Shown here one piece after another: positions 2,304-63,809 of a stretch of DNA of 64,000 nt. The translations under genes were made by a program, and so were the position numbers. This DNA is from Candidatus Dormiibacterota bacterium (GTDB lineage: Bacteria; Chloroflexota; Dormibacteria; Aeolococcales; Aeolococcaceae): the NCBI GenBank assembly GCA_003162415.1, contig PMOL01000012.1, positions 16,728 through 80,727 on the forward strand. Reading direction: 5' to 3'. The first letter of the stretch is position 1. Every line of letters starts with the position of its first letter. The notes beneath the pieces were generated by a model. The model saw only the letters and a list, made by a program, of their open reading frames with translations. It ran no database searches and had not been told where the DNA came from.

Positions 2304-2891
2304 ATGGGAATGCGCATGGATCGCCGCGATGATCGCGGCAGCGAGTTTCAGGAGAAGATCGTCTCGCTCAACCGGGTCGCGAAAGTGGTCAAGGGCGGAC
2401 GTCGGTTCTCGTTCAGCGCGCTCGTGGTCGTCGGTGACGGCAAGGGCCGTGTCGGCGCCGGGCTCGGCAAGGCCGGCGAGGTGCCGGACGCGATCCGCAA
2501 GGGTGTCGACGACGCCAAGAAACACATGATCACGGTGCCGATGGTCGGTACGACCATCCCGCACGAGGTGCGCTACAAGCTTGGCGCCGCCAAGGTGATG
2601 CTCAAGCCGGGAGTCCCGGGCACGGGCGTCATCAGCGGGAGCTCGATGCGCGCTGTGGTCGAGGCCGCGGGGATCAAGGACATCCTCACCAAGAGCCTGG
2701 GCACCGACAATCCCATCAACGTCGTTCGCGCCACCGTCTCGGCACTCGCAAGCCTGCGAACCCTGGCGTCGGTCGCCGAGCTTCGCGGGCGGACCCCGGA
2801 GCAGATCGTCGGGAGCCGCAAGATGGCCGACCGCATGCTCGGCCGGACCCCGGCAGTGCCCGAGATCCCCGCCGTCGAGGTGGTGCCATGA
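2304..2891 (+). CDS. rpsE: 30S ribosomal protein S5
   Basis: [32 protein letters not shown] (S5 dsRBD-like core). Start could also be ATG 2310 or 2316. Confidence 0.95.
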
Positions 2892-3133
2892 GCACGGTGC
2901 GTGTCACCTACCGCAAGAGCTCCATCGGCTACGCCTGGGATCAAAAGGCCACCGTGGCGGCGCTCGGCCTGCGCAAGCTCAATCACACCGTCGAGCACGA
3001 GGCCACCGCGTCGATTCGCGGCATGGTCCACAAGGTTCGCCACCTGGTTGCCGTCAACGGCGAGCCGGCCGACTCCCCGGCGGGCGTCGCCCTGCTCCAG
3101 GAGCTTGCAACGGAATCGGAGAACGCGGCGTGA
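2888..3133 (+). CDS. rpmD: 50S ribosomal protein L30
   Basis: [31 protein letters not shown]; ATGA overlap with rpsE stop. 81 aa, longer than the usual ~60 aa. Confidence 0.85.
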
Positions 3134-3873
3134 AGCTTCATGAGTTGAGCCCTGCGAAGGGCAGCCGCCGGCCGCGGAAACGCGTCGGTCGCGGCCAGGG
3201 CGCCGGACAGGGCAAGACCAGCGGCCGTGGCCAGAAGGGCCAGGGCTCGCGCTCGAGCGTCGGGCTCCCCACCGGCTTCGAAGGCGGCCAGATGCCGCTC
3301 AAGCAGCGGCTCCCGAAGCTTCGCGGTTTCCACAATCGCTGGCGTCACGAATACGTCGTGGTCAACCTCGGCAAGCTCGTTCGCTTCGAGAAGGACACCG
3401 TGGTCGACCCCGATGTGCTCAGTGAGGCGGGATTGATCCCGCGCGTGTCCTCGCCGGTGAAGGTGCTCGCAGCCGGTCACCTCGGACATGCGCTGACCCT
3501 TCGCGTGCATCGGATCTCGGCAGCGGCACGCACTGCAGTCGAGTCCGCCGGTGGCTCCGTCGAGCTGCTCGGCCCGCAGCCCCCCGCCGAGGGTGCGGAA
3601 CCCGTCGGCAAGCGCGAGCTGCGCAAGGCCGCTGCGGTGGTCGCCCGCGCGGAACTGCTCAGCCGCCCGTCCACGCCGCGCGAACCGGTCGCCAAACCCG
3701 ACGGCAAGAAACGTGCCAAGGGAGCAGGCAGCGAGGCTGCAACCCAGCCCAAGCCCGCGCGACGCGAGCGCGGCGGTAAGAGCCGAGCTGTCAGCGACGA
3801 TACCGGCGCGGCGCCCGAAGCCGAGCGGGACGCACCCCAGGACAACGAGGCGGAGACCGAGGACACGGAGTGA
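3130..3873 (+). CDS. rplO: 50S ribosomal protein L15 with ~100-aa low-complexity C-terminal tail
   Basis: N-terminal ~147 aa is L15-like ([37 protein letters not shown]...), followed by an A/E/K/P/R-rich tail. GTG start overlaps rpmD stop. Confidence 0.9.
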   Translation: MKLHELSPAKGSRRPRKRVGRGQGAGQGKTSGRGQKGQGSRSSVGLPTGFEGGQMPLKQRLPKLRGFHNRWRHEYVVVNLGKLVRFEKDTVVDPDVLSEAGLIPRVSSPVKVLAAGHLGHALTLRVHRISAAARTAVESAGGSVELLGPQPPAEGAEPVGKRELRKAAAVVARAELLSRPSTPREPVAKPDGKKRAKGAGSEAATQPKPARRERGGKSRAVSDDTGAAPEAERDAPQDNEAETEDTE

Positions 3874-48430: not shown

Positions 48431-48506
48431 GCCGAGGTAGCTCAGTTGGTAGAGCACAGGTCTGAAAAACCTGGTGTCGACAGTTCGATTCTGTCCCTCG
48501 GCACCA
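48431..48506 (+). tRNA. tRNA-Phe (anticodon GAA), CCA encoded
   Basis: GCCGAGG/CCTCGGC acceptor, D arm GCTCAGTTGGTAGAGC, anticodon arm CAGGT-CTGAAAA-ACCTG, T arm GACAG-TTCGATT-CTGTC, then ACCA. Confidence 0.92.
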
Positions 48507-48566
48507 CTATTTCGAATACAAAGCTGCACCTTGTGAGCGCAATACGACCACAGATTTGTGTGAAAT

Positions 48567-57497: not shown

Positions 57498-57539
57498 CGT
57501 AAACCGCTGACCGGGAGTGCGAGTCTCCTGCCGGCTACA
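57498..57539 (+). repeat. Diverged tRNA-Thr 3'-half-like repeat (copy 3)
   Basis: CGTAAACCGCTGACCGGGAGTGCGAGTCTCCTGCCGGCTACA aligns with 53658-53700 with 5 substitutions and 1 indel. Direct orientation, 3.8 kb apart. Confidence 0.6.
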
Positions 57540-58131
57540 GGGGCGTCGCGAAGAGCTCGGACGTGAGGCCGCCGACAGGCTCGAGGCACTCATCGGCGGG
57601 GAGTCTCCGCAGAAGCCGTCCCGAGCCGCCATATTTGGCCTGATGTCCGAGGAGCCAACCGACGAGACGATCGCGTTTCTATTCGATCTCGCGCGAGAGA
57701 CGCCCGATCGCGTCATCGACCAACTCAAGTCGCTCCAAGGGCGCGTCACTCAGTCGTTTACTACTGGGACCGTTCTAATCGCGTTTGCCGCCTTCGCCAC
57801 TGTCCCCGGCAGTCATCTGACCCATGCAACCCTTGGTGCCTTGGCAATGGCCGGACTCTCTTACGTATTCTTGACCGTTATTGCCATCCTCACGTTGCTA
57901 CCGAGTTGGGGGTACGGCTTGCCCGCTCCTCCCACACTCTGGAACGATTACCGCACGTACAAGGTGAGATCGATTCAGGAGGCGTTCATCGAAAGGTTGC
58001 GGCTCGACTGGCCCACCGCCAAGAACAAGATCAACGACGCCAAATGGGCTAGTCGTATAGCTGTCTTGTGCGTCGTCGCCGAGGTAATCGCTCTCGCTGT
58101 CGGCCTTGTGCTGTCGCGGGTGAATACCTAG
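57517..58131 (+). CDS. Uncharacterised three-TM membrane protein
   Basis: N-terminal helical region (ETIAFLFDLARETPDRVIDQLKSLQGR), TMs at TGTVLIAFAAFATV, GALAMAGLSYVFLTVIAILTLL and ASRIAVLCVVAEVIALAVGLVL. Start uncertain (57517 or ATG 57643). Confidence 0.5.
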   Translation: MRVSCRLQGRREELGREAADRLEALIGGESPQKPSRAAIFGLMSEEPTDETIAFLFDLARETPDRVIDQLKSLQGRVTQSFTTGTVLIAFAAFATVPGSHLTHATLGALAMAGLSYVFLTVIAILTLLPSWGYGLPAPPTLWNDYRTYKVRSIQEAFIERLRLDWPTAKNKINDAKWASRIAVLCVVAEVIALAVGLVLSRVNT

Positions 58132-58855: not shown

Positions 58856-58937
58856 GCCGGGTTGCGGCGTGAAGGGCTCGGCGGTCTCAAAAACCGCCGA
58901 GGACAACCTCGTGAGGGTTCGACTCCCTCTCCCGGCA
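58856..58937 (+). tRNA. tRNA-Leu(CAA)-like element, degenerate D arm (possible pseudo-tRNA)
   Basis: Acceptor GCCGGG(T)/(T)CCCGGC, anticodon arm GCGGT-CTCAAAA-ACCGC, long variable arm CGAGG-ACAA-CCTCG, T arm GAGGG-TTCGACT-CCCTC, discriminator A, no CCA. The D stem has a C:C mismatch and a short loop. Confidence 0.4.
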
Positions 58938-59465
58938 CGTTGTTACATAAAGGATTTCGGCTTGACGAGGCCCCTCTCCTGACCACCCGTCGGGCCAGTT
59001 TATAGCCACGCGTGTAGCCACTGGGCGCAACGAACGGGCAGGACGACTGCTGCGATCCGGTCCCACAAGGATGGATGCCGTGGGGGCGCTCGATAGAGGC
59101 GCATCGGGCAGAAGGATAGATGGCGACATCGGGCCTCGGGTTCAAGTGAAGGGTCCGCGACGCGCACCCGGAGCGAGCCCCCATCTAGGGAAGCAACCCT
59201 CGAATGGGAATGAGCTTCAGGGGTTTCGCGGCCACCCATACCCGGTCGCTATCACGCCCGCCTGCCGACCCCTAGAAGTGCATGACACGTCTGAGCACAT
59301 CGCTCGCCAGTTCGAGCAGCCGCGCACGGATCGACAAGCGGCGGACGTCAGGGACCATGTCGGGTGCCAGCGTGACTGACGGGTAAGCCAACGCACCACC
59401 GTTGCCGCCCACGCTGGTAGACCCGCAGGTGCCTGGTGCTGCTACTGTCCCGAATCGTGCTGGGA

Positions 59466-59813
59466 ATGAGGAAGGCGTGGACGTGCGCCCTCGTCGCGGT
59501 AACTAGCTGCTGCCTAATGGCCGACAGCTGCAGTGGCTCGGACACGGTGATCGAACCGACGCCCATAGTCACGTCGCCTGCAGCGACGGCCCACCCGACT
59601 GCGCCCCTCGTACCAGCGCCCGCAACCAAGGCTCCTACCGCAGCGCCATTACCCGTAACCTCTGGGTTCAACCACGCAGCAGCAAGGGCAGCGGGCGCGA
59701 CGGCAATCTGCAAGGACGGTACCTGGAGTTACAGCGCCCACCGCTCAGGGACGTGCTCTGGTCACCACGGCGTCAGTTGGTGGACGGGAAACCTTGGGCC
59801 TGCTGGACCGTAG
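59466..59813 (+). CDS. Secreted DUF3761-domain protein
   Basis: Start at ATG 59466 (MRKAWTCALVAVTSCCLMA signal), P/A/T linker, C-terminal CKDGTWSYSAHRSGTCSGHHGVSWW. Confidence 0.7.
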   Translation: MRKAWTCALVAVTSCCLMADSCSGSDTVIEPTPIVTSPAATAHPTAPLVPAPATKAPTAAPLPVTSGFNHAAARAAGATAICKDGTWSYSAHRSGTCSGHHGVSWWTGNLGPAGP

Positions 59814-60033
59814 AGGTGGCACATCATGCCGCCATCCTGGCCCTCTCACGCGGGAGAGCTTCACCGGCACGAGTGTTGATGACGTGCCCGGCGTCGCGGT
59901 GGAGGCGTACGTCGTCGAGGAGCGAATGGACGAGCCCGACCCGCCTCGTGAGTCCTCGTTCCCCGTCACGCGCCTGGGCAAGCTCCCGCCGGGATTCGGC
60001 GCCCGCCGCTTGGAGCAGCCCGGGGGTAGTGGG

Positions 60034-60354
60034 TCAGTTTGAAATCGAACGTCGCCGCGCGCGAGAGTCGACCCACCAAGAAGCGCCGTAGCAGAGGAAC
60101 ATCGAGACCAGGCCTACCGACCCGATGTCGTTGCCCACAACGCTGGCCGAGTTGGTCGCTAGCAGACTGAACTCGGTTATCACTCCGGCGCTCCCGACGA
60201 TCTGGGCTGCGCCAATCCACCTCTGGGCTGCCGGGGCCTTGGGAAGCCGTCGGCCCAGACGAGAGATAAGAGGTCGCGCGTTGATCAACATCCAGACACC
60301 GTTGAGCATGATCACAACGAGGACCAGGCCCCCGAGCAGGTAGGCGATGTCCAT
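60034..60354 (-). CDS. Small three-TM membrane protein, unknown function
   Basis: MDIAYLLGGLVLVVIMLNGVWMLI..., ...IGAAQIVGSAGVITEFSLLA..., ...VGLVSMFLCYGASWWV. Divergent from the kinase operon. Confidence 0.5.
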   Translation of the reverse strand: MDIAYLLGGLVLVVIMLNGVWMLINARPLISRLGRRLPKAPAAQRWIGAAQIVGSAGVITEFSLLATNSASVVGNDIGSVGLVSMFLCYGASWWVDSRARRRSISN

Positions 60355-60568
60355 ATCACTGAGCCTAGTCCATCTGGAATTGACTTATGGGAGGAGTGAG
60401 ACGATCTCCTTGATCCCCGCCCGGTAGTAGGCTCGCCTTCAACCCGAAACCCATTCCCTTCCTGAAGAGGCCCCTGGCGGCGTGCCGGGGGTCTCTCGCT
60501 TGCGCGGGGTCAGCACGAGGACCCGTTGACCTTGGGGGTGACCGAACTGCGTTACGCTGTCGCCGCCT

Positions 60569-61342
60569 GTGAGCATCACGCGCGATCAACTCGAGCGCCT
60601 CGATCGACGACACCCCGACCCGCCGGCGCTCGCAATTACCCATGCCGGGCCCCCGCTGGTTAACTCCTTAGCAAGTCCGCACAAGTTCGTCTGCAGCAAT
60701 TCGCGCACGTACTGGACCAAACGGAAAACACAACGCGCGTTGGGCGTTGAGCTGATCGCTGGCAGGCTGGCGCATCTGATGGAGGTCGGCCCCAACGCTC
60801 GGCCAGTCATGGTGCCGCAGGCGGCCCTCCCTTCCGATCACTCTGCAGACCACTGCGAGGGACTCTGCGTGGGCTTCGTGGCCGTGCCTGACACCGTGAA
60901 CACCAAGGACCTCCCGACATTCCTGGCTCAGGGTGGCGTCTTCAATCCCGATTCCCTCAACGCGGCTAGCAGGGCGCGGGTCATCGCCTTTCGCGCATGG
61001 ATCGGTGCCGGAGACGCCCAGGCGCTCATACAGTTCAAGACAGGGAAACTCTTGTCCATCGACCATGGTGATGCGCTGGACGTGGCAAGCAGTTCGGTCG
61101 ATGCGCAAGGTGTTAGCGTCTCCGGCGTTGCGGACGATGTTGGCAGAGACGCGAGGCTGGCACGGGTCACTGTTGAGCGCATTGAGAACGTGTCGGAGCA
61201 CGAACTCCTTACCGCTGTGGCTGACGTACCGGATGAGCCCGGCTGGAATTTGGATCTAGACGCCCGTCTCAAGATCGCCGAGTGGCTCGCCAACAGGCGC
61301 GGTAAGATACGTGAGGTGATGTCAAAGTGGTCAATCAAGTAA
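60569..61342 (+). CDS. HipA-family-like (PI3/4-kinase fold) protein kinase
   Basis: ...SRTYWTKRKTQRALGVELIAGRLAHLMEVGPNARPV (nucleotide-binding Lys strand plus helix), ...FRAWIGAGDAQALIQFKTGKLLSIDHGDAL (catalytic-loop Asp; IDHG as DFG equivalent). Recognised by eye only. Confidence 0.6.
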   Translation: MSITRDQLERLDRRHPDPPALAITHAGPPLVNSLASPHKFVCSNSRTYWTKRKTQRALGVELIAGRLAHLMEVGPNARPVMVPQAALPSDHSADHCEGLCVGFVAVPDTVNTKDLPTFLAQGGVFNPDSLNAASRARVIAFRAWIGAGDAQALIQFKTGKLLSIDHGDALDVASSSVDAQGVSVSGVADDVGRDARLARVTVERIENVSEHELLTAVADVPDEPGWNLDLDARLKIAEWLANRRGKIREVMSKWSIK

Positions 61343-62121
61343 TTCAACCAGGCTACTTTTCGCTGCTTCGTTGGCGATCGGATGCGACCCGGGACGAGGC
61401 ACGGAATGTCGCGGTTATCCTCGTCGATGCTGAGGGGATGATTGGAGGGCTGCGGGCCACGGATTCTGTGGCGTCGATTAGTCCTCACCTTGCTGAGCAG
61501 GGACTTCTCGACACCCTTATCCATGGCCTCCAGGCGCGACTCGAAGGCCCGGAAAGACCGGATCTCGCCGAACTGCGACGCATGCACCTATCGCTCCAAG
61601 AGTCGCTGTACCTGACGGAACCCAAGCCGTGCGCTGTTGTCGATGTCGAGCAAACGCTAAACATCCTTTTCAAGGCTTATGTCAAGCGTCCGAGCTTTCC
61701 GAGCGGTCGCACCAAGGGCAAGTTGCTCGTGCAAATCGTCAAAAGGCTGCGTGCCGAGAAGCTCGACGTCCGCCGCGATGCATATGTGGATGACTATCAA
61801 TTTGACGCACTGGTTCGAAACGGAAAAGGTCCGGTCGCTCTGAATGTTCTGACCTTCGCTCAGGCCGCGCGAAAGGACTGGAGAGAGGCTGAGTACGATG
61901 CAAGCCACTTCATCTTCAGCGTCGAGCGAACAGGGCTTCCTGCCGTCGCTTTGTTGGAGGCACCCGGGGACGACTCGCCCGGCACGACACAGGTTCCCTA
62001 CGAGCGGGTAAACCGTTGGTACTCAGACGCCGGGGTGCCCGTCCTAGGACCGGAGGCGGTGATACTCGAGCCACGGCTGGTGATGGAGTCGGCCCACAGC
62101 GTAGCGCCGGCCGCCCGCTAA
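61327..62121 (+). CDS. DUF3037-like protein (N-terminal DUF3037 signature, uncharacterised C-terminal half)
   Basis: GTG start overlaps the kinase 3' end by 16 nt. GYFSLLRWRSDATRDEARNVAVILVDAEG matches the Y-x-R-x(6-8)-E-x-x-N-V-G-V-I-L pattern of DUF3037. Confidence 0.6.
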   Translation: MVNQVIQPGYFSLLRWRSDATRDEARNVAVILVDAEGMIGGLRATDSVASISPHLAEQGLLDTLIHGLQARLEGPERPDLAELRRMHLSLQESLYLTEPKPCAVVDVEQTLNILFKAYVKRPSFPSGRTKGKLLVQIVKRLRAEKLDVRRDAYVDDYQFDALVRNGKGPVALNVLTFAQAARKDWREAEYDASHFIFSVERTGLPAVALLEAPGDDSPGTTQVPYERVNRWYSDAGVPVLGPEAVILEPRLVMESAHSVAPAAR

Positions 62122-62158
62122 GGTCACCCAAATCGCGCTCGGTGTAGCCTCGTGGTCA

Positions 62159-62980
62159 GTGCCACACTCCCTCGTCTGTCGAATCTGTGGTGCGGCGCTG
62201 CCGGCGACACCAGACTATTTCTACGCCCGTGGTGACACTGGAAAGCTCCGCTCCGACTGCAAGCCGTGCTTTCGCGCAGCGAAGACAGCGCGCGACCTCA
62301 GTGACCCCGAGCACCGACGAGCAGCTGCCCGCAAGAGCTACCACAAGGCGGAGCCCGACGGACGGAAGAAGGGCGTGGCGGCCAAGATACGGGCGCGCGA
62401 AGCTAACCCGCCGCTATACGCGGCGATCGCCGAACGGTACGAGACCCGACACCTAGCCGAGCGGACTTCGCGCCGGAAGGAGTGGCTCTCGGCCCATCGC
62501 AAGGAGGAGAACGCCAAGTCACGGGCCTGGTACTACGCCAACCGCGAGCGCGCCATCGCAACGGCATGCGCCTGGCAAGAGGGGCACCGCGAGCAACACA
62601 AGGCGAATGTGGTGAACGTTCGTACTCGACGGAGGGGCGCACCTGGTGCTGGCTTCTCTGGCCGCGCCTTCGCGGCACTGGTGGAGACGTATGGTGGGCT
62701 ATGCGCTTATTGCAGCGACCCCCTCGGTGACGATTACGAGCCGGACCACGTTGTCGCCTTAGGGCGCGGGCGAGGTGGACACAACGTGATCGACAACATC
62801 GTGCCTGCGTGCAAGCCTTGTAACCGCGCGAAGTCTTCCAAAACGGTGGAGACGTGGCTCGAGATCCTCCTGCGAGAGGGACTCGGGGCGAACATCCACC
62901 CGCTCGCGCTACCGGTGCTGCAAGCAAACGCGCCGGCGGCTGTCTGGCTTCGAGTCCTTGCCGCACGGACGGTCCCATGA
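62159..62980 (+). CDS. HNH endonuclease with N-terminal zinc ribbon and basic helical region
   Basis: CRICGAAL...CKPC; C-terminal CAYCSDPL...EPDHVVALGRGRGGHNVIDNIVPACKPCNRAKS (HNH/His-Me finger). Confidence 0.85.
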   Translation: MPHSLVCRICGAALPATPDYFYARGDTGKLRSDCKPCFRAAKTARDLSDPEHRRAAARKSYHKAEPDGRKKGVAAKIRAREANPPLYAAIAERYETRHLAERTSRRKEWLSAHRKEENAKSRAWYYANRERAIATACAWQEGHREQHKANVVNVRTRRRGAPGAGFSGRAFAALVETYGGLCAYCSDPLGDDYEPDHVVALGRGRGGHNVIDNIVPACKPCNRAKSSKTVETWLEILLREGLGANIHPLALPVLQANAPAAVWLRVLAARTVP

Positions 62981-63219
62981 GCCGCTTAGTCCCCGCGGAC
63001 GAGCCCTGGGTCGCATTCCTCGGTTTTGGGCCGGAGATGCGCGCGCGACCAGATGATGGTCTCATCCACTATCGGGGCGCGGGTCGGTTTCTGGGGCCGC
63101 GAACCCTCTGTGGGAAGCTTGGCCGTCGGCGCTGGAAAGGTAGCGGGCGGCTCTGTCGTGAGTGCGATGCCCTGGCTGGACCTCCTGATCGCACTGTCCA
63201 GCGACCCGACTCAAACTGA
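62977..63219 (+). CDS. Small Cys-containing protein coupled to the HNH gene
   Basis: ATG 62977 overlaps the HNH stop (ATGA): MSRLVPADEPWVAFLGFGPEMRARPDDGLIHYRGAGRFLGPRTLCGK...CRECDAL. No family recognised. Confidence 0.4.
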   Translation: MSRLVPADEPWVAFLGFGPEMRARPDDGLIHYRGAGRFLGPRTLCGKLGRRRWKGSGRLCRECDALAGPPDRTVQRPDSN

Positions 63220-63809
63220 CGCACTACACGCAGACGAGGTATCTAGTCCTGCGCTGATGCCCTAGACGGCCGGCGCTCGTCGGACAGGGTGCTAAAGACC
63301 CACACCCGACTCCAAAGCCTGAGCATAGGGTCACTCCGGCGCGAGCGATCAGCCTTACGCGCCAGGGGGAGGGGCAATCGGTGGCGCGGGCGGCGATGGC
63401 GGTGGCGGCGGGTGGGGACTGCGGGTCACGGCGAGCACCACAATCACAAACACCGCGACGATGGCCAACGCCGCGATGAGCAGGAACAAAAGAGGGATCG
63501 GGGCGCTAACGATTTCCGTGATGCTCGATCCTACGCTGCCCTCGCACGGCTACGTCACACAAGGGCGGAGGGCCCGGGGGCTGCGCTACTGGGGGGCGGG
63601 GTCGGATGGCGAGTCGAGGCGACAGCGATGACGATAGCGACCTGGACCGGAATGCTTGGCGAGCGCGACGGCTGGCGCTGCCCGAAGTCGACCAGCACCT
63701 CGGTGGCTGATGATCTGGCGCCACTCCCAAAAGACACGCACAGGCCTCGCAGCCAGCCATCGTAGCGACGTGAAATGTCCCCTACTTGAGAGGTTTGGGA
63801 AAGGCCGAT

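Follow-up and report, generated by a model that had tools for sequence, protein, structure and literature searches.

A probable mobile toxin-antitoxin-type cassette of a divergent HipA-like kinase and a DUF3037 protein in a Candidatus Dormiibacterota genome

The 64,000-nucleotide stretch of contig PMOL01000012.1 analysed here (the window, which lies on a metagenome scaffold of 328,552 bp, WOOD18-1, scaffold_17) carries two overlapping genes, A and B, that probably constitute a self-contained, horizontally mobile toxin-antitoxin-type module of the HipA-like kinase/DUF3037 class (PDC-M66 = DS-6 = HipAD), a reading to which we assign a probability of about 0.72. An earlier note on this DNA had taken the pair, together with two further genes, for a novel and uncharacterised system. 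That claim does not survive, as such pairs are already listed by PADLOC as candidate PDC-M66 and have been validated as DS-6/HipAD, of which the window pair is a very divergent Actinomycetota-type copy. The cassette, its two genes and the domains of B are the following, as taken from the list of open reading frames (ORFs) and the analyses indicated:

60498..62129, + strand: A-B cassette, 1632 bp (blastn and junction alignments against the related locus L018)
60569..61342, + strand: gene A, 257 aa, GTG start at 60569 (ORF list); HipA_2-type (HipA-like) protein kinase, putative toxin
61327..62121, + strand: gene B, 264 aa (ORF list); DUF3037-family protein, putative antitoxin/regulator
61357..61683, + strand: DUF3037 domain, B residues 11-119 (Pfam alignment, invariant columns)
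61714..62031, + strand: PD-(D/E)xK (restriction-endonuclease-like) fold, B residues ~130-235 (Foldseek on the AlphaFold2 model, residue table); probably non-catalytic in the window's clade

The ORF coordinates agree with the arrangement given in the earlier note, with A (257 aa) and B (264 aa) on the same strand and the start of B overlapping the end of A by 16 nt. The GTG start of A at 60569 is supported by the conservation of the N-terminal 100 aa among homologues. The low GC content noticed in this region is also borne out, the local value being 0.58-0.63 vs ~0.67 across the window.

Gene A encodes a protein-kinase-fold enzyme of the HipA_2 (PF20613) lineage. The Pfam HipA_2 model ('HipA-like kinase'), which has a gathering threshold of 27 bits that the window protein does not exceed, is matched by 7 of 13 close A homologues (best 8.4e-7), and among ten distant matches of the A profile it was found in nine and lay above the Pfam cut-off in eight. 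Unlike HipA_2 proper, the window protein falls below the reporting thresholds of this model. Alignment with hhalign of the A-family profile to bona fide HipA_2 members extends over 234 columns (99.94%, E 2.4e-37). The columns invariant in the A family (K51, E61, W144, D149, Q151, S163, D165, H166 and G167) are also conserved in the bona fide HipA_2 proteins, and they coincide with the kinase motifs that had been picked out in the earlier note, namely K51 in YWTK, D149/Q151 in GAGDAQ and D165-H166-G167 in IDHG. A further invariant motif is placed towards the C-terminus (P221..W226..R233..L240..R243). The HipA_2 motifs CxDGxxYxxK, E-x-[IV]-x-G-R-L, W-x4-D-x-Q, S-[IV]-D-H-G and P-x4-W...R...W-L-x2-R-R are all found in the A family. 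Close relatives of A are rare (13-23 clusters among 5.8 billion), and of the 622 representatives that an exhaustive search with the A profile gave at E<=1e-3, 98 reach E<=1e-30; A belongs to a divergent sub-branch of HipA_2.

The AlphaFold2 model of A (predicted local distance difference test, pLDDT, 90.7; predicted template modelling score, pTM, 0.90) adopts a kinase fold. Its Foldseek matches in the PDB comprise VPS34 and PI4KIIalpha (PI3K/PI4K-type), Tel1/ATM, Fam20 (Golgi casein kinase) and H. pylori CtkA, with E-values from 1.6e-4 to 1e-3, probability ~1.0 and template modelling (TM) scores of ~0.5; HipA itself is absent from the top 50 of these matches. HipA has long been assigned to the PI3/4-kinase-like superfamily (Correia et al. 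2006, as cited in PMC13092281). Searching PDB sequences with the A-family and B-family profiles gave nothing useful, and phage and plasmid collections gave no tblastn match to either A or B, though A matches phrog_3162 (unknown function) over its full length (2.7e-6). Judging from alignment and model, A looks like an active small kinase with its catalytic residues intact. A canonical HipA of the HipBA type was considered for A and rejected, as neither HipA_C nor HipA_N was detected in A or in 12 homologues and no HipB accompanies it; the gene upstream of A is a divergent one for a 106-aa membrane protein and not for a helix-turn-helix (HTH) HipB. The designation 'HipA-family-like kinase' of the earlier note is correct, by profile and by fold, as far as the HipA_2 lineage is concerned, and does not extend to canonical HipA.

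At the family level, B can be assigned by sequence to DUF3037. Residues 11-119 of the window protein align to the entire PF11236 model (positions 1-118 of 118) with an E-value of 0.13 (12.9 bits). In total 57 homologues of B were found; 35 of the 45 aligned ones, which are 36-84% identical to B, match PF11236 at E<=1 (best 9e-8), and seven B homologues carry a precomputed PF11236 annotation. The proposal that the N-terminus of B fits DUF3037 is upheld in this form, with a full model span that is sub-threshold for the window protein alone and with the matches of its homologues. The DUF3037 domain contains an invariant hairpin formed by S12, R15-W16-R17, T21-R22-D23-E24 and N27.

A closer look at the AlphaFold2 model of B (pLDDT 93.2) distinguishes two domains, DUF3037 (~1-120) and a C-terminal one (~130-235). 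The latter is predicted to have a PD-(D/E)xK core fold: Foldseek against the PDB relates it to AF1548 (3e-3), Hjc resolvases, Can2/Cdn1 and XisH, with probabilities of 0.9-1.0 and modest E-values, and against BFVD it relates B to phage endonuclease-like proteins down to 1.8e-5, where two phage proteins align to the whole of B (E 3e-10 and 1.4e-8). The structural comparison suggested in the earlier note has in this way yielded a kinase fold for A and a restriction-endonuclease-like one for the C-terminal domain of B. Most members of the B family keep D135, D160 and E/D173. Where the (D/E)xK motif has its Lys, 41 of the 45 members have Leu. The window protein presents V135, D160, N173 and L175 at these positions, leaving the catalytic D...(D/E)-x-K residues incomplete, and together with its two closest relatives it has V/T135 and N173, that is, two acidic residues were lost in the window's clade. 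In two Solirubrobacterales genomes the B-family gene is split into two ORFs (L011 5869-6761, L012 5950-6749) next to a kinase gene that looks intact; these split genes are either long-read frameshift errors or decaying antitoxin genes.

Pairs of this composition have been studied experimentally in other bacteria, and work from 2025-2026 showed that they protect E. coli against phages. A HipA-like kinase and DUF3037 pair is embedded in Retron-Sda1, where deletion of the kinase abolishes defence against phage Bas51, loss of the DUF3037 gene proves toxic and the retron components are not required, the kinase being the toxin needed for defence and the DUF3037 protein its neutraliser in a pair that works without the retron (PMC12548924). 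The window pair has the same two-family composition as this pair and PDC-M66; unlike the Retron-Sda1 pair, it has no reverse transcriptase or non-coding RNA nearby. The second case is DS-6, renamed HipAD, a tested anti-phage system in E. coli that loses defence with the kinase mutant D139A and for which AlphaFold3 predicts a complex between DS-6A and DS-6B, with weaker DNA binding (PMC13092281). DS-6A (WP_000389051.1) has 249 aa and DS-6B (WP_000210934.1) 275 aa (DefensePredictor, PMC13092281). In the sequences of the supplement of that paper the kinase (2415-3164) lies upstream of the DUF3037 gene (1591-2418) on the minus strand, with a 4-nt overlap. The window reproduces this layout, a small HipA-like kinase (249 vs 257 aa) being placed upstream of, and overlapping, a ~270-aa DUF3037 protein with an extra C-terminal domain; the homologous kinase, the shared DUF3037 hairpin motif and the location on mobile DNA are further common traits. 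The A-family profile aligns to DS-6A over 143 columns (hhalign, 95.9%, E 5.3e-9), and BLASTP of A against DS-6A gives E 7e-6 at 22% identity. From the W-x4-D register, D139 of DS-6A would correspond to D149 of the window kinase; the aligners place a 9-residue gap there. On the other side of the pair, the B family and DS-6B share the N-terminal motif [YF]S[IL][VL]R[YW]...E[EA]xN[IV][GA]V, and B is linked to DS-6B because both match DUF3037. The statement that DUF3037 lacks an established function has been overtaken by these published pairs, with which the family now has an assigned role as putative antitoxin. The toxin-antitoxin or abortive-infection reading of the earlier note agrees with the experiments on homologous pairs (PMC13092281, PMC12548924) for A and B only, and not for the HNH nuclease that it had included.

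The resemblance to the HipBA and HipBST systems is of a more general kind. In them, as would hold for the window pair too, a Ser/Thr-kinase toxin of the PI3/4-kinase-like superfamily is checked by a co-transcribed protein, and the window kinase is short like HipT, without the HipA N-terminal subdomain. Unlike HipBA and HipBST, the window pair has no HipA_C/HipA_N, no HTH HipB and no HipS, and its putative toxin gene comes first, a reversal of their order.

The restriction-endonuclease-like fold of the C-terminal domain, along with D135, D160 and E/D173 being kept in most of the family, would suit an arrangement in which B is the effector, a PD-(D/E)xK nuclease killing by DNA cleavage, and the kinase its sensor or regulator. 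B is nevertheless unlikely to be a catalytic nuclease, because the Lys is replaced by Leu in 41/45 members and the window and its closest relatives carry V/T135 and N173. In the tested homologues, moreover, defence depends on the kinase Asp, and removing the DUF3037 gene causes toxicity, the reverse of what losing an effector should do. We regard an effector role of B as quite improbable and reject it on both its degenerate catalytic residues and the published genetics of homologous pairs.

Related loci were searched with profile hidden Markov models (HMMs) of both the A and B families. In 12/12 informative related loci an A-family gene is placed directly upstream of a B-family gene, with overlapping ends; the loci with enough sequence in the search from B were L003-6, L007, L008, L009/L014, L010, L011, L012, L013, L015 and L016. 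The overlaps measure 4-16 nt where annotated and 4-22 nt over all searches. When the search started from the kinases P0077 and P0012, the gene that follows was in both cases of the B family (1.7e-98, overlap 13 nt; 4e-66, overlap 22 nt). A scan of the genome collection with the B profile returned six loci. The related loci come from metagenome-assembled genomes assigned to Actinomycetota, Acidimicrobiaceae, Solirubrobacterales and Thermomicrobiaceae.

Elsewhere the pair lies among genes of the kinds usual on mobile and defence DNA. On a large chromosomal contig it adjoins GmrSD and a ResIII/RE_endonuc enzyme, and other copies lie beside an HD/HD_assoc dGTPase-like gene, two DNA methyltransferases or a TrwC relaxase. 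At L013 the neighbours are a 1629-aa helicase-restriction endonuclease, an integrase, ArdC and RadC. The 1629-aa protein (L013 2047-6936, - strand), which has an MTES_1575 restriction-endonuclease domain in addition to superfamily 1 (SF1) helicase domains (AAA_11/AAA_12), adjoins the A-B pair and could have a defence function of its own. The neighbourhood survey proposed in the earlier note accordingly confirms the A-B pairing (12/12 loci) and mobile or defence-type neighbours elsewhere, and fails to confirm the co-occurrence of HNH.

The occurrence of homologous pairs on elements with TrwC relaxase, or with integrase, ArdC and RadC, is also what would be seen if the pair were an addiction module stabilising its mobile element through post-segregational killing and not a phage defence. 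The behaviour of the pair as a mobile cassette (see below) and the toxicity that follows deletion of the DUF3037 partner (PMC12548924) speak in the same direction. On the other hand, two homologous pairs gave kinase-dependent phage defence (PMC13092281, PMC12548924), and at some loci, on large chromosomal contigs, the pair has restriction-type genes as neighbours. We consider a pure addiction module a minor possibility; addiction and defence roles are not mutually exclusive.

The boundaries of the cassette could be defined by comparison with L018, a contig that lacks the pair. In blastn and junction alignments this contig is 95.5% identical to the window over 59359-60497 and 92.6% identical over 62130-63390. 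Its left homology stops at ~60497 and its right homology resumes at ~62130, and in place of window positions 60498-62129 (1632 bp) it has 301 unrelated bp. These 1632 bp begin 71 bp before A and end 8 bp after B. No direct or inverted repeats of at least 8 nt were found at the cassette ends. A-B behaves as a discrete, mobile two-gene cassette.

The region on both sides of the pair contains the following genes and ORFs:

60034..60354, - strand: 106-aa predicted membrane protein (ORF list); conserved left flank of the cassette site, outside the system
62159..62980, + strand: gene C, 273 aa; phage-type free-standing HNH endonuclease with an N-terminal CxxC...CxxC element
62977..63219, + strand: ORF D, 80 aa (the 'Cys protein' of the earlier note), with ATGA overlap with the C stop; coding status doubtful
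63053..63265, + strand: 70-aa ORF, the gene actually called here, accompanying the HNH gene

The HNH nuclease and the small Cys protein had been described as the third and fourth genes of a conflict operon in which kinase, DUF3037 protein, HNH and small Cys protein would act together. The four reading frames do lie on the same strand, separated by short gaps: C starts 37 nt past the stop of B (37 nt and not the 38 bp given previously), and, as had been reported, an HNH gene follows whose stop codon is overlapped by the ATG at 62977 (ATGA). The identity of C as an HNH nuclease is clear from Pfam HNH (1.5e-8), phrog_1035 (2.5e-23) and tblastn, by which it matches 53 phage records annotated as HNH endonuclease. 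Its domain resembles PtuB-type defence nucleases (PADLOC, 5.6e-9), a point in favour of such an operon, although its best matches are phage homing-type HNH endonucleases. Against it, no homologue of C or D was found in any of the 12 other A-B loci, so that among A-B loci the HNH gene and small ORF occur only in the window's own genome. L016, the closest A-B relative (B 84% identical), has no HNH gene, and after B it has 187 bp followed by sequence that in the window's genome lies 2878 bp downstream; because these 2878 bp include the HNH gene, the latter sits in an insertion/deletion. Conversely, L018 keeps both flanks, with the 106-aa membrane protein gene conserved at 95.5%, as well as the HNH gene and the 70-aa ORF, and has no A-B; a JGI contig likewise without A-B shows the 106-aa gene (- strand), then HNH and then the 70-aa ORF. 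Because of this double dissociation (A-B without HNH in 12 loci; HNH and 70-aa ORF without A-B in L018 and the JGI contig), A-B is a discrete 1632-bp cassette, and the HNH gene with the small ORF is a separate selfish unit lying beside it by chance, outside the A-B system. The four genes are no conserved unit, and their joint action, hardly tenable on these grounds, was rejected.

The 80-aa ORF D, for its part, is not a called gene. It is absent from the recorded gene calls, where a 70-aa ORF in another frame appears instead, and from the protein collection in both its 80-aa and 121-aa forms. The exact sequence of the 70-aa ORF is found in a protein cluster with three members from three assemblies (two besides that of the window), and it has no Pfam match. 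The GC contents by codon position of D (0.73/0.61/0.63) are less gene-like than those of the 70-aa ORF (0.65/0.56/0.71). Substitutions against L018 amount to only three changed codons, too few to compare the two ORFs by the ratio of non-synonymous to synonymous substitution rates (dN/dS). The HNH gene itself differs from that of L018 in 65/273 codons, 34 of them non-synonymous, and the following 414 bp contain only nine substitutions (window 62159-63390 vs L018 3952-5183), so that divergence between the two contigs is uneven here and much greater in the HNH gene.

Several observations weigh against the assignment of A and B to the HipAD class as a toxin-antitoxin-type module. With respect to detection, A itself has no match in Pfam (E<=1), NCBIfam or PADLOC, and B falls below the PF11236 gathering threshold (12.9 vs 22.6 bits); the HMM searches recommended in the earlier note fail for the window proteins in this sense and succeed for their homologues, with PF20613 and PF11236. 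The PDC-M66A/B models of PADLOC (PADLOC-DB version 2.0.0) do not match window A or B; PDC-M66B matches 2 of 45 B-family members (E 0.013) and PDC-M66A none of 20 A-family members. With respect to the validated systems, these share only ~22% identity with A, and the catalytic loop of A is 9 residues shorter than that of DS-6A. The B-family profile is collinear with DS-6B over 169 columns in an hhalign alignment that is not significant (5.6%, E 0.0068). DUF1829, assigned to the C-terminal part of DS-6B, was undetected in any B-family member, where window B has its modelled PD-(D/E)xK-like fold; the DUF1829 assignment on DS-6B is itself weak (HHpred 0.78, PMC13092281). Unlike DS-6/HipAD, which is from Enterobacteria, the window branch resides in Actinomycetota/Chloroflexota metagenome genomes. 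With respect to the locus, a promoter, terminator and operator search upstream of A gave no consensus promoter and no convincing palindrome or operator (by eye, TTGACC and TACGCT separated by a 21-nt spacer can be placed at 60526-60558, unconvincing as a promoter), and there are no recognised defence genes in the window's own neighbourhood.

The catalytic-loop Asn, finally, is missing in A, another difference from DS-6A; this is a trait of the whole HipA_2 group and no lesion of the window copy. Its absence, and the fact that the closest solved folds are lipid kinases (PI3K/PI4K), could indicate that A has a housekeeping or regulatory function, as a pseudokinase or as a kinase of small molecules, and that the pair is no conflict system. 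No variation is seen, however, in the Lys/Glu pair, the catalytic Asp or the DxG Asp, the distribution is patchy and linked to mobile genetic elements with presence/absence polymorphism, and A is homologous to a kinase validated in defence, all of which makes this explanation highly unlikely.

In the module that we favour, B is translationally coupled to A on a shared transcript. By inference from the tested homologues, it would bind the kinase and keep it inactive, probably through the invariant DUF3037 hairpin, and its C-terminal domain, with the nuclease fold, may serve in autoregulation or sensing by binding DNA. Such a DNA-binding or sensing role may be considered for this domain in general. 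Phage infection or loss of the element would, again by extension from the tested homologues, lift the inhibition by B, and the freed kinase would phosphorylate an essential host protein, so that growth stops and the infection aborts. HipA and HipT act on aminoacyl-tRNA synthetases, which offers an analogy for the target of A.

A variant of this scheme departs from a simple HipBA-like pair, in that B would be a fusion of sensor and inhibitor and the module a DNA-triggered kinase switch, possibly with a target other than a tRNA synthetase. DUF3037 could then be a trans-acting stand-in for the N-terminal subdomain that is missing from short HipA-like kinases, as HipS is for HipT, and the degenerate PD-(D/E)xK domain could sense DNA or nucleic acid and free the kinase on phage DNA. 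The fold and the invariant hairpin of B are compatible with this switch, which we nevertheless hold to be rather unlikely.

Some further features of the region were recorded. A tRNA-Leu(CAA) gene (58856-58938, + strand) is placed 1.6 kb upstream of the cassette, with no attachment-site-like repeat of the tRNA 3' end within the next 12 kb. At its very beginning, L018 matches the 3' end of the window tRNA-Phe (48431-48507) over 39 bases, at 97%. The stretch downstream of this tRNA is hypervariable between close relatives, since the spacing from its end to the homologous block at 59359-60497 is ~2.4 kb in L018 vs ~10.8 kb in the window. Remnants of mobile elements flank the region, on one side a 73-aa phage-integrase fragment (PF00589; 53809-54030, - strand) and on the other an IS110-family transposase at ~67760-68833, beyond the window (16434-17507 in L001, the window's own locus, with coordinates equal to those of the window minus 51326). 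A small DUF3761 protein is encoded at 59436-59813 (+ strand; Pfam 8e-12). Beyond the window, 6.4 kb further downstream, the DNA for its C-terminal WWTG motif is found again (L001 14832-14855) within a gene for 246 aa, pointing to a paralogous domain. A 204-aa ORF at 57517-58131 (+ strand) has a gene-like GC content by codon position and hydrophobic C-terminal segments, and gave no significant match in Pfam, NCBIfam, PADLOC or PHROGs.

No concept is changed by these results, because the system type and its toxin-antitoxin logic have already been published. Their significance is that the recently validated HipA-like/DUF3037 defence pair (HipAD/DS-6/PDC-M66) is extended to high-GC Actinomycetota-type lineages from soil and wood, a branch overlooked by the detection models in present use (PADLOC-DB 2.0.0, Pfam thresholds). 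The clean presence/absence polymorphism bounds a minimal functional cassette of 1.6 kb that is directly clonable. Within B, the pattern of conservation points to the half with the essential function, the hairpin being invariant and the nuclease-like acidic residues dispensable in the window's clade.

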